Below, piece by piece: positions 21,001 through 61,689 of a DNA stretch of 64,000 nucleotides. The stretch is from Octopus vulgaris (taxonomy: Eukaryota), in assembly GCA_951406725.2 (NCBI GenBank), contig OX597816.1, forward strand, positions 114,762,001 to 114,826,000, in the 5' to 3' direction. The notes below the pieces were generated by a model. The model made no database searches and was not told where the DNA came from. It worked only from the letters and a program-made list of their open reading frames with translations. The translations under genes and the position numbers were made by a program. How positions within the stretch are numbered: position 1 is the stretch's first letter; every line of letters starts with the position of its first letter.

Positions 21001-21208
21001 CTTTTATTAAAGCTGCAAAATTATCACAGAACTGTTACTCAGAGTTCCATGTTACCCTTCGTTGGACAATTTTGATAACAACAAACAGAAGCGTAAAACT
21101 CTGAGTAACAATTTTGTGATAATTTTGCAGCTAATAAAAGCACATTACTCTACATTTGATATTCGAGTATTATTTTTCTCACCTTGATTTGCACTTATGT
21201 ACTCACCT
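21001..21208 (+). mobile_element. Foldback insert with decayed hammerhead (same family as 26443-26658)
   Basis: Inverted repeat 21001-21140 (TGTTACTCAGAGTT / AACTCTGAGTAACA) followed by a tail shared with 26587-26658. Confidence 0.75.
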
Positions 21209-21597
21209 ATATGTACACACACATATACATACAAATGCAAGATTGTTTGTCTTATGCATGTTTTAGTCATTAGACAGCAGCCATAATGAGGCATCTCCTT
21301 GTTTGGCTTAGCCATTCAAATCAACCCCAGTGCCTGTATATATTGTAAGCCTGGTACTTATTCTATTGGTGTCTTTTGCCAAACTACTAAGTTATAGTAA
21401 CATAAACAAACCAACACTGGTCATCAAGCCATGGCTGGAAACACATAATACAAACACACACACTCACACACAGACATATATGTATGCATCCATATGTATA
21501 TGTATTAGAATGTGTATACACATACACACACACACACACACACACACACACACACACACACACACACACATATTATTATGTATATACATGTATGTGT

Positions 21598-21860
21598 GAA
21601 GGCACATGGCTTGGTGGTCAAGGTGTTGCACTCACGATTCTGAGATCATAGGTACGATTCCCAGACTGAGTGTTGTGTTGTGTTCTTCAGCAAAGCATTC
21701 CATTTCCCGTTGCTCTGCGATCATTTCAACATCTGATATGTGGTACCCATTGCACCTGTACAGGTAATGTCGATCTATAAACAAATCATTTGCGTGGGTG
21801 TTCGGTAAGAAATCGTCGAACCCTCATATGTCATGTAATGATGGGTGAGTCTATCATCGT
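21598..21860 (+). mobile_element. tRNA-headed SINE, family D group
   Basis: GGCACATGGCTTGGTGGTC...GTACGATTCCCAGACTG...TTGTGTTCTT. A diverged relative lies at 38297-38440. Confidence 0.65.
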
Positions 21861-58228: not shown

Positions 58229-59216
58229 ATATATATATATATATATATATATATATATATATATATATATATAAGAAAATGACAAAGGAATAAATGCTTA
58301 TCTTATGATCTTTATTAGCTTACAACTGTTTCTACTATAAGATGCAATAGACTCATAGTTGAGTGCCTGAGAAACACCTTATAGTTTCATGCAACTGAAA
58401 TGCAATTCATTTGGGAAATGAATTGAAGCCTATGTATATTGAGGTCTATAACAGGCTATTAGTCTTGCAATGCCTAAGCGAAATACATATATACATAGCT
58501 TTTAGACTCAAACTGGAGAGCAGACTGTCAATTTCCCTATGTTATTCTTGTCTTTCCAGAGGTTGAAATCAGTTTGATCTCTATAAACACAGAGAAACAG
58601 TAAGCATCCTGTTAGGTCAAATCTAAAGGAATAAATATATGTTCAATATTTAAAACTATATTGATTTCTTTACTGAAGTGTAGTCTTGTTCGCTTGATCT
58701 ACAACACTAAATAACATACATATTGAGATAAGTGTGTGAGTCTAAGTTGATGTATCTTTAACACAGACATATATGGTATTGTGATAAACTTACAACTCTT
58801 TCTTTGAGATCTTTTTTAGTTCCATGAAGCATTTGATTGCAATGATGATAGTGTAACAAGGACAGAACTTAGAATATACAAGAACAGTTTATAGATATAG
58901 GCATATGCACAAACTCACAGATACATGCATACACGCACATGCAGAACAACTGCATATATGTATATGCATATCTATGTACTTAATTTTTATTTTCTTATTC
59001 TTTTACTTATTTCAGTCATTTGACTGTGGCCATGCTGGATCACCACCTTTAGGTGAGCAAATCTAGCCTGATTTATTCTTTGTAAGCCTAGTACTTATTC
59101 TATTGGTCTCTTTTGCAGAACTGCTAAGTTACAGGGACGTAAACACACCAGCATCGATTGTCAAGTGATGTTGGTGGGACAAATGCACAAATACACACAC
59201 ACACACACATATATAT

Positions 59217-61012
59217 TTTAGGACAATCAGTAAATTGTTATAATAGGATTCAGAGTTTCAAATGCCGGAGCTAAGAGCTACAATGCATTCTCATTGGCTA
59301 TTAATGGCAATAGATGATATAAAAAAAAACGTTGAATAAAAGGGAAGTTACTCTAATATGTAGGAAAATATATAAAAGATAAAAGATACACACAACCATA
59401 TTCTCACAAGATGTAGACATATATCCTCCTGCGTTCATAAGATCTACATACGTACACACACACACACACACACAAACATGTATATATACATGCCTATAAA
59501 CACACAAACATATATATGCATTTACGTACTCATACACATATCCACACATGAAAACACACACACACACACACACACACACACACATACATACATATATATA
59601 CATATATATGCATGAAACTTCATCCTCATATTCCCATAGGTGTATGCTTACATATATATATTTAGACATTCATACATATAAATATATGCATATATATATA
59701 TGTATGTATATATATATATATATATATATATATATACACATATATATATATATACATATATACATATATACATACATACTCATACAGGTATCATTCACGT
59801 TTTCACATTCACCACATGTATGAATATACGTATATATACATCTGTACACAATTATATATATATATACATATATATATATATATATATATATATATGTATA
59901 TGTATGTATATACATATACACCCTCTTATCACACACCTACAACTGCAGATATAAGATTTACTGGAAGATCTTAACCGAGTGTAAACCTTATACCAACGGT
60001 TGTGTTATGTATGGTCATTGTGATATGTAAAGATGGCTCATCTGGAAATTTTCTTTGGACCAAGCTACATGTCTAAATTCAAGAACTGAACTTTTTGGAT
60101 CATGTCCACATATGACAAAATATCTGTTATGGTTTTGAACCCCCTAAGATTATGGATAGAATCTGCATTTCTACTATGTTCCCATGTCTTCACATTTGTT
60201 ATTGTTTTATATATTTTTCCTTTTTTGCTTTTTAATTGTGTGATTGTGTACGTGTGTGAGTATATGTATATGTAAGTATATATTAAATGTGTATGTGTGT
60301 GCATGTGTATATATGTGTACACGTATATGTTTATGAGTGTAGGACTGTGTCTGCCCATAAGTGCGACTTTCATGCACATGTCTCCTTCTTTTATACATAT
60401 ATGTATATGCATATGCTTGTATATCTGCGGTTGTGTGTGATAGGAGGGTGTATATGCATACATATATATATATCTGTGTACATATGTACATATATGTATA
60501 TTCATATATGAGGTCAGTGTGAATGCATGCCTGTATGAGCATATATATATATATATATATATGTATATATATATATATTTATGTATATTTATATGTATAA
60601 ATGTCTAAATATATATGTAAGCATATACCTGTATGTATATGAGGATGAAGTTGCATGCATATATACATATATATATGTATATGTGTGTGTGTGGATATGT
60701 TATGAGTACGTAAATGCATATTTATATATTTGTGTGTGTGTGTGCATGTACATATATATGTTTGTGTGAGTGTGTACTTACGTAGACGTTATGAACACAG
60801 GAGATTTTTATGTCTAAGTGTTGTGAGAATATGATTGCATGTATTATTTATCTTTTATACTTTTCCTACATATTAGAGTAACTTCCCTTTTATTCAACGG
60901 TTGTTTTTTATAGCGTCTTTTGTTATAATAACTGATGAAAATGCATTGTAGCTCTTAGCTACGGCATTTGAAACTCTGAGTCCTATTATGACAATTTACT
61001 GATTGTCCTAAA
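59217..61012. repeat. Large diverged inverted repeat (arms ~59217-59955 and ~60415-61012)
   Basis: TTTAGGACAATCAGTAAATTGT.ATAATAGGA.TCAGAGTTTCAAATGCC is mirrored at the right end; colinear matches continue through the microsatellites. Confidence 0.9.
60925..60989 (+). ncRNA. Type I hammerhead motif
   Basis: ATAATAA CTGATGA AAATGC[ATTGTAGCTCTTAGCTACG]GCATTT GAAA CTCTGAG TC CTATTAT; decayed mirror copy at 59243-59303. Confidence 0.75.
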
Positions 61013-61689
61013 CTATACATATATAAATTCTCTATTTACTTAATATTGAGGTCTCATTCACTTGTTGCCATTTTATATTCTTCTTCTTCTTCTTCTTCTT
61101 CTTCTTCTTCTTCTTCTTCTTCTTCTTCTTCTTCTTCTTCTTCTTCTTATTATTATTATTATTATTATTATTATTATTATTATATATATATATATACACA
61201 CACAACGAACTTACAGTTTCTGTCTACCAAATCCACTCACAAGGCCTTGGTCAGCCCGAGGCTATAGTAGAAGACACTTGCCCAAGATGCCATGTAGTGG
61301 GAATGAACCCGGAACCATGTGGTTGGTAAGCAAGCTACTCACAACACAGCCACTCCTGTACCTATGTAGGTGTATTTGTATAAACTTTTCTTGTACACTC
61401 TAAATTGTGTCCATTTTAGTACATAATCATCACTGCAAGTGATTCGTTGTGTGTGTGTGTATGTGTGTGTTATATTATATATGTCTAAATATATATTTAT
61501 ATATATAGTATCTCTCTCAGTCTCTCTCTCTCTCTCTCTCTCTCTCTCTCTCTCTCTCAGGATGTATACACACACACTCACACATGCATATATGTATATA
61601 GGGAGAGAAATAGAGACAGATAGAGAAACAGAGAGAGGGAGATAAATGGAAAGATATGTCTGTGGGAATATATATATTAAAAAAAAAAA

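Follow-up and report, generated by a model that had tools for sequence, protein, structure and literature searches.

Six foldback elements with hammerhead motifs lie among the dense (TA)n and other microsatellites of a 64-kb stretch of the Octopus vulgaris genome (OX597816.1:114,762,001-114,826,000, referred to here as the window; the genome comprises 2.8 Gb in 227 contigs). They belong to five families: A (window positions 21001 and 26443), B (46396), C (57012), D (52771) and E (59217). The foldbacks are, with good confidence, 5'-truncated insertions of four coding families of Penelope-like elements (PLEs) with Hydra-clade motifs and of one family lacking an open reading frame (ORF), and the two-armed ones likely arose from two separately primed complementary DNAs (cDNAs). 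Each arm has its own fixed 3' site, the two sites are 70-150 nucleotides (nt) apart, the stretch between them forms the tail, the junctions vary, and the flanks are (TA)n. A first-pass annotation of the window had recognized foldbacks of five families at these six places, and inverted arms were located at each. The features concerned are listed below.

21001..21212, plus strand: old family A insertion; inverted arm about 21001-21091, sense arm 21093-21206, tail of about 70 nt.
26443..26660, plus strand: family A insertion; inverted arm 26438-26512, sense arm 26510-26660, tail from about 26592.
46395..46895, plus strand: family B insertion with an atypical junction; inverted piece of 80 nt at 46395-46474, sense arm from 46571, tail of about 150 nt.
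52690..53114, plus strand: family D insertion; inverted arm 52690-52788, ending at the proximal 3' site; sense arm about 52800-53114, cut short.
52979..53035, plus strand: minimal type I hammerhead with an intact core (CUGAAGA, GAAAC-CG-GUC), found with a strict descriptor, family D.
57012..57567, plus strand: young family C insertion; inverted arm 57012-57220, sense arm 57221-57567, tail 57421-57567.
57277..57350, plus strand: type I hammerhead with an intact core, found with the strict descriptor, family C; mirror copy from 57155 on the minus strand.
59207..61080, plus strand: old family E insertion; inverted arm 59207 to about 59950, sense arm about 59950-61028, tail of about 55 nt to 61080.
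59932..60138, plus strand: decayed C-terminus of a PLE endonuclease (W.IL...PY...C..C...LNSRTE...CPH) with one in-frame stop.
60932..60982, plus strand: type I hammerhead, CUGAUGA in this copy, found with the strict descriptor, family E.

For each query, the 30 top-scoring BLAST loci were read. All families are dispersed, and the first-look candidates numbered 1813 for family C, 3508 for B, 969 for A, 943 for E and 687 for D, figures that are not copy numbers. Family C copies are 99% identical, and window positions 57221-57567 match the 3' end of the family C coding unit at 99.4% identity. This unit was found in a tandem array on contig C1, where four matches spaced 3624 nt apart correspond to one partial and three full units that are 99.9% identical. 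The ORFs of the array, 899, 899 and 867 amino acids (aa) long, encode a reverse transcriptase (RT) followed by a GIY-YIG-type endonuclease. The 899-aa protein contains YRDD and AVY...YVG, as well as RWL at position 41, DKT at 126, CNLC at 859 and CPH at 887, and it has neither DKG nor CxCX5C. The unit measures 3.6 kb and includes a long linker rich in Ser, Asn and Gly.

The first-pass annotation had linked the inserts to PLEs, and ORFs with RT and GIY-YIG domains were indeed reached upstream in four of the five families. Family B leads to an RT-endonuclease ORF that is 57% identical to that of family C over 472 aa. Family A runs upstream into a decayed RT and endonuclease, and family E leads to endonuclease remnants; Pfam gave no RT or GIY-YIG match on the family A protein. 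The earlier idea of a PLE-derived ribozyme system thus stands as regards its origin, but the label of ORF-less elements fits only family D, A, B, C and E being truncated coding PLEs. Even for the window itself, the earlier claim that it shows no PLE ORF was narrowly wrong, because the decayed endonuclease C-terminus lies in the 59217 insertion, whose supposed spacer is element sequence. The same endonuclease region is seen in the loci L051 and L040. It was through family E copies that the remnant was reached; a tblastn search of the window with the family C ORF gave no match.

The two arms of a copy end at different places. An adjacent inverted arm is present in 24 of 30 family C loci, and its outer end lies at unit positions 3455-3468 in all 23 in which it was reached, with the sense end near 3617. 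In family A, an inverted arm occurs in 18 of 30 copies and stops in 15 of them at 2579-2593, falling about 70 nt short; in family B, 19 of 30 copies have one, and 14 of these arms end at 2229-2240, about 150 nt before the sense end. A tail-free family C query yielded 30 loci representing 22 insertions, and exactly one tail is present in each of the 14 two-armed insertions whose two ends were both visible (0.5^14 = 6e-5); the rest had a single arm, extended beyond the edge of the locus or belonged to the array. In the window, the tail lies on the hammerhead side at 21001, 26443, 46396, 57012 and 59217, as had been proposed. The proposed association with (TA)n was also borne out: (TA)3 occurs within 20 nt past the 3' end motif in 30/30 copies of family C, 29/30 of A, 22/23 of B and 9/16 of E, compared with a background of 10-18%. 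The motif was not found in 7 further B copies and 14 further E copies. The family E tail is common to 7 of the 16 copies with the end motif.

The junctions between the arms are distinct in all 36 cases pooled for family C, from which L219 was excluded because of an extra piece. Loop position had been suggested earlier as the feature that discriminates between modes of origin, and its variation among copies indicates that the hairpins arise at insertion rather than belonging to a dedicated hairpin element. In 13 junctions the tail-less arm is the longer of the two, in 12 it is within 20 nt of the other arm, and in 11 it is shorter, so the earlier assertion of a shorter inverted arm does not hold across the family. 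In L156-L158, 1.3-2.2 kb are present in the tail-less arm alone, and in L212 and L228 the arms do not overlap. The junctions show microhomology of 0-5 nt or filler of at most 112 nt, and in L088 a filler of this maximum length separates equal arm ends. In family B, four inverted arms extend further 5' than the sense arm. Family E junctions were left out of the tabulation because internal microsatellites confuse the alignments.

These arrangements bear directly on the snap-back model of the first-pass annotation, in which a single truncated cDNA turns back on itself and serves as its own template. A closely related self-priming has been proposed for palindromes of rotifer PLEs, according to the consulted part of PMC3846280, and the 12 of 36 family C junctions that are near-perfect palindromes, some with 3-4 nt of microhomology, would suit it, as would the natural stem-loop at the 26443 junction. 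However, a single tail-bearing cDNA copies only its own content, so its inverted arm must be shorter, and the tail could not come from a cDNA that lacks it. The longer tail-less arms (13/36, by up to 2.2 kb) and the arms without overlap consequently require two cDNAs. Nor can snap-back give the 112-nt filler between equal ends or explain the fixed outer end of the inverted arm short of the tail. As a general mechanism it is contradicted by these copies and quite unlikely, while it may serve as the joining step in some of them; local fold-back followed by annealing would be possible for some near-equal junctions. Near-equal inner ends exceed the permutation expectation (12 versus 2.1; outside a hotspot of inner ends, 5 versus 0.56, p = 5e-5), and 7 of the 10 scored have at most 1 nt of microhomology, or filler, and no usable fold-back stem. 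This suggests that both cDNAs often reach the 5' end of one RNA. The hotspot, at unit positions 3222-3249, contains 15 of 72 inner ends and may be a natural RNA start, tentatively so, as a query boundary lies nearby. Such a start would account for short hammerhead-bearing hairpins being so common.

A different possibility is a dedicated hairpin ribozyme element, free of ORFs, that would move as one unit with its antisense arm as a regulatory switch. Family D, in which the longest open frame is 61 aa, would fit such an element, and predicted folding places the hammerhead in double-stranded RNA (dsRNA) in three window elements: 74/74 hammerhead nt pair with the antisense arm at 57012, 33/34 at 26443 and 33/41 at 21001. 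The sequestration of the ribozyme envisaged in the first-pass annotation is therefore predicted at these sites and partly at 46396 (35/71), but not at 52771, where the inverted arm covers 0/58 hammerhead nt and the supposed common design of a sense-arm hammerhead facing its antisense copy does not hold. The dedicated element is nevertheless highly improbable, since all 36 family C junctions differ, no adjacent inverted arm is present in 6/30 C, 11/30 B and 12/30 A copies, the cores of the older families decay like neutral DNA, and coding ORFs are reached from A, B, C and E. The dsRNA predicted by folding is a plausible by-product and does not argue for a designed switch.

The ribozymes themselves are preserved to different degrees. 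A strict type I descriptor gives four matches in the window (52979+, 57277+, 57155- and 60932+), whereas 100 block dinucleotide shuffles gave 0.02 on average and never more than 1. The hammerheads reported earlier in the sense arms are thus supported, but their cores are intact in only 3/6 elements: 21001 lacks CUGANGA and G12, 26443 has G12>A, and 46396 has G12>A and U16.1>A. Within families, the core is identical in 30/30 copies of C, CUGANGA is present in at least 19/30 copies of B, and CTGAAGA was read in 21/30 copies of D; A and E commonly have CCGA or CCAA. Overall, the hammerheads of B and C are nearly invariant, and those of A, D and E are decaying. Among 21 matched arms of family A, core positions 3-6 read CCGA in 6, CCAA in 8, CTGA in 6 and another sequence in 1; the corresponding numbers for 20 matched arms of family E are 11, 3, 4 and 2. 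This pattern fits CpG decay starting at CCGA, which makes it likely that the CUGA at 26520 and 60932 arose secondarily. A family-wide CCGA (U4C-type) core, as in A and E, escapes standard descriptors; a U4C hammerhead variant is known in a viroid and has lower in vitro activity, according to the accessible text of PMC3088659. An Rfam scan of the window gave no hammerhead among the 150 listed of 819 matches, and those listed were microRNA-type, driven by microsatellites or hairpins and under gathering scores.

Family D has a unit of about 530 nt whose 3' end joins its own 5' start, with a period of 523-544 nt in 11 loci. Among the 48 distinct loci read of the 687 first-look candidates, the sense arm ends near position 136 in 24, near 240 in 16 and elsewhere in 8. 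More than one unit is spanned in 12 of the 48, with a longest span of about 1.5 units and no full dimer. Two arms were found in 21 loci, of which 12 have one end of each kind, one has two distal ends, and 8 have an end that lies elsewhere or was not reached; 12 of the 13 with both ends on the main sites are therefore mixed. By its behaviour in the sequences, family D is likely a non-autonomous PLE or a retrozyme without long terminal repeats (non-LTR retrozyme), mobilised in trans. It could instead be the 3' repeat of an unsampled coding PLE, for which the small share of candidates read leaves some room. This is unlikely in view of the junction between the unit's own ends and the loci longer than one unit; moreover, the sole RT/endonuclease match beside a D copy is separated from that copy by (TA)n, and the follow-up search for a D parent reached another family instead. 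Two loci on different contigs, L170 and L179, have an arm of another family joined to family D at the same point, unit position 174, which would reflect either a chimeric template or a duplication. A 588-aa open frame of a reverse transcriptase of the long interspersed nuclear element type adjoins the family D insertion (window 50767-52533, minus strand).

The preferred reading, in which two separately primed cDNAs make up a two-armed insertion, can be described in steps by analogy with PAc (Poseidon of Anolis). In the available text of PMC11167929, PAc cuts and extends both strands, two internal RT starts bound its tail, and hammerhead cleavage is dispensable. In the octopus elements, the RT-endonuclease would nick both (TA)n strands in a manner resembling PAc in vitro, and each nick would prime reverse transcription. 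One cDNA would start at the distal RNA site and the other at the proximal site, after which the two cDNA ends would be joined head to head via short microhomology or filler. Less firmly, a single RNA may often be the template of both cDNAs, each extending to the 5' end of that RNA, and near-perfect palindromes would result. Being situated a short way upstream of the two start sites, the hammerhead would be carried along; its cleavage site, unit position 3398, is upstream of both end sites, and consequently the copied RNA was either uncut there or rejoined. For family D, an enzyme of this kind would likely act in trans, with tandem or circular RNA as its template. A more specific form, in which one enzyme dimer primes both strands on a single RNA at two sites, with the distal cDNA displacing the proximal one, and also mobilises a 530-nt family D circle, is tentative and has somewhat less than an even chance. 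Under this form, each two-armed copy would have exactly one tail, and the arm ends would often be equal. If true, it would be direct insertion-level evidence for retrozyme-like RNAs as non-autonomous PLEs.

Several observations weigh against the two-primer reading and the assignment of the parents. Pfam gave no RT or GIY-YIG match on the family C ORF, a weak GIY-YIG match being obtained only on a different PLE neighbouring the family C array, and the clade placement rests on motifs and comparison by eye. Reading the top-scoring loci favours young copies that span the query. The pool of 36 junctions includes L066 and L217, whose inverted arms have an unseen outer end, and 3 of the 10 scored near-equal junctions have 3-4 nt of microhomology, with which local fold-back also fits. 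In family B, 5 of 19 inverted arms end off the main sites or were not reached, and the same applies to the 8 of 21 two-armed D loci mentioned above, in addition to the one with two distal ends. A coding partner of family D was sought in follow-up searches and not found. Finally, PAc belongs to another clade and, in the part of PMC11167929 at hand, its start site in vitro did not differ between the strands, whereas the genomic copies here have strictly one of each.

As described in the available portion of PMC8557442, PLEs of the Hydra clade have RWK and DKT, no CCHH, a CxCX5C linker, CxxC and CxH in the endonuclease, hammerheads and (TA)n targets. The present families share the single ORF with RT and C-terminal GIY-YIG domains, an RWK-like motif (RW(K/L)), DKT, the absence of CCHH, CxxC and CxH around conserved E and N, the 3' type I hammerhead and the (TA)n sites, and the family C protein is co-linear with Hydra-1_Obim by eye. 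The closest published element comes from an octopus. The CxCX5C linker is present in A (CNCKDGSWC), partial in E and absent in B and C; that of B has no cysteine. On these motifs, family A is filed as Hydra, and B and C as Hydra-like variants. In contrast to the clade as portrayed in that source, B and C lack CxCX5C yet occupy (TA)n, the C unit measures 3.6 kb and not the typical <3 kb, A and E have a CCGA core, and the hammerhead sequences differ from those of Hydra-1_Obim. The Neptune clade, a first guess, was rejected because neither its CX2-5CxxC linker nor its CCHH motif was found. A protein search returned 501 relatives, almost all without names, and they did not name the clade.

The foldback design, with its inverted truncated copy, one-sided tail, hammerhead and (TA)n surroundings, is already known, and the additions made here, the insertion statistics and family D, are modest. 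Inverted 5'-truncated copies, tails at one end and a microsatellite bias are PLE features in print. In the supplement of PMC8557442, as far as it was available, Penelope-13_HM has an attached 5'-truncated inverted copy with a hammerhead on both strands. Minimal hammerheads in PLEs, opposite-strand pairs 100-700 base pairs (bp) apart and low activity even as dimers are reported in the accessible text of PMC4209133. PAc is similar in its two 3' end sites defining the tail, AT-rich targets, tandem organisation and hammerhead upstream of the starts. It differs in clade and in its tails of 30-40 nt versus about 55-150 nt here, and the portion of PMC11167929 consulted does not report a strict one-site-per-arm rule or coupled arm lengths. 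The Penelope elements of Adineta vaga, in the part of PMC3846280 seen, have an inverted pseudo-long terminal repeat (pLTR) beside a direct copy, a tail on one repeat, palindromic junctions, low-complexity inserts between RT and endonuclease, trans-mobilisation by pLTRs, and antisense small RNAs. Self-priming is the reading given there, whereas the present copies favour two primers. No statement of the one-site-per-arm or two-primer rule was found in the searchable literature, subscription papers and preprint supplements being beyond reach.

Family D may be compared with non-LTR retrozymes as presented in the accessible parts of PMC7229834 and bioRxiv 10.64898/2026.07.22.740005. Both are ORF-less and AT-rich and have a tandem-type unit with one type I hammerhead. 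The retrozymes typically measure about 300 nt versus about 530 nt in D. Family D further differs in its minimal PLE-type hammerhead with a long stem II, in occurring mostly as 1-1.5 units and not as arrays, and in its PLE-type inverted arms and two end sites; a circular RNA would be only an inferred intermediate for D.

The young family C, with an open ORF and many near-identical insertions, turns the formation of PLE inverted copies and tails into countable rules, and its ORF offers a candidate protein with which the Hydra clade could be studied in vitro. According to a recent proposal, the retrozymes of animals are non-autonomous PLEs, and family D is relevant to that idea. Families B and C probe the idea that a zinc-finger linker targets microsatellites, as the linker is absent and the (TA)n sites are kept. 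The sequences at L092:2285-4984 (minus strand) and in L154 (families B/C) are without the cysteine linker, yet 22/23 and 30/30 ends lie at (TA)n.

The individual insertions in the window differ in age and structure. The 21001 insertion is about 75-77% identical to a long natural family A copy, L093, and its hammerhead core is decayed in both arms, which pair over 21009-21091 and 21093-21206. The paired stretches are 57012-57220 and 57221-57420 in the 57012 insertion, and 59207-59952 and 59950-61028 in the 59217 insertion. At 26443, the sense hammerhead (26520-26553) carries the G12>A change, and the inverted arm read on the minus strand retains CCGACGA...GAAAC; the stem-loop at the junction is small. 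At 46396, the paired arms are 46395-46474 and 46577-46656, a second small hairpin lies at 46548-46592, and the hammerhead with its two core changes spans 46616-46689. Its arms are separated by a 96-nt filler consisting of a short inverted piece and a piece that is presumably like a short interspersed nuclear element (SINE). At 52771, the arms overlap by only 18 bp, and the inverted arm reaches beyond the sense arm on the 3' side.

The family C sense arm is covered by contigs from four sequencing runs, presumed to be RNA, which show neither strand nor ends nor locus; their letter differences are inseparable from differences between copies, and they were left unused. The repeat at 58030-58230 is very deep in contigs of the four runs. 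The PLE next to the family C array (L092 6916-8862) has a cysteine-rich linker and GIY-YIG and is palindromic, with the array inserted in one of its arms. Further hammerhead-like cores in the window, at 961+, 19583+, 42563-, 43796+ and about 58083+, are probably other PLE 3' ends. Another degenerate local inverted repeat, absent from the first-pass annotation, adjoins (TA)n at 29818-30011, and a short tandem repeat of about 65 nt lies within a SINE-like repeat at 50120-50470.

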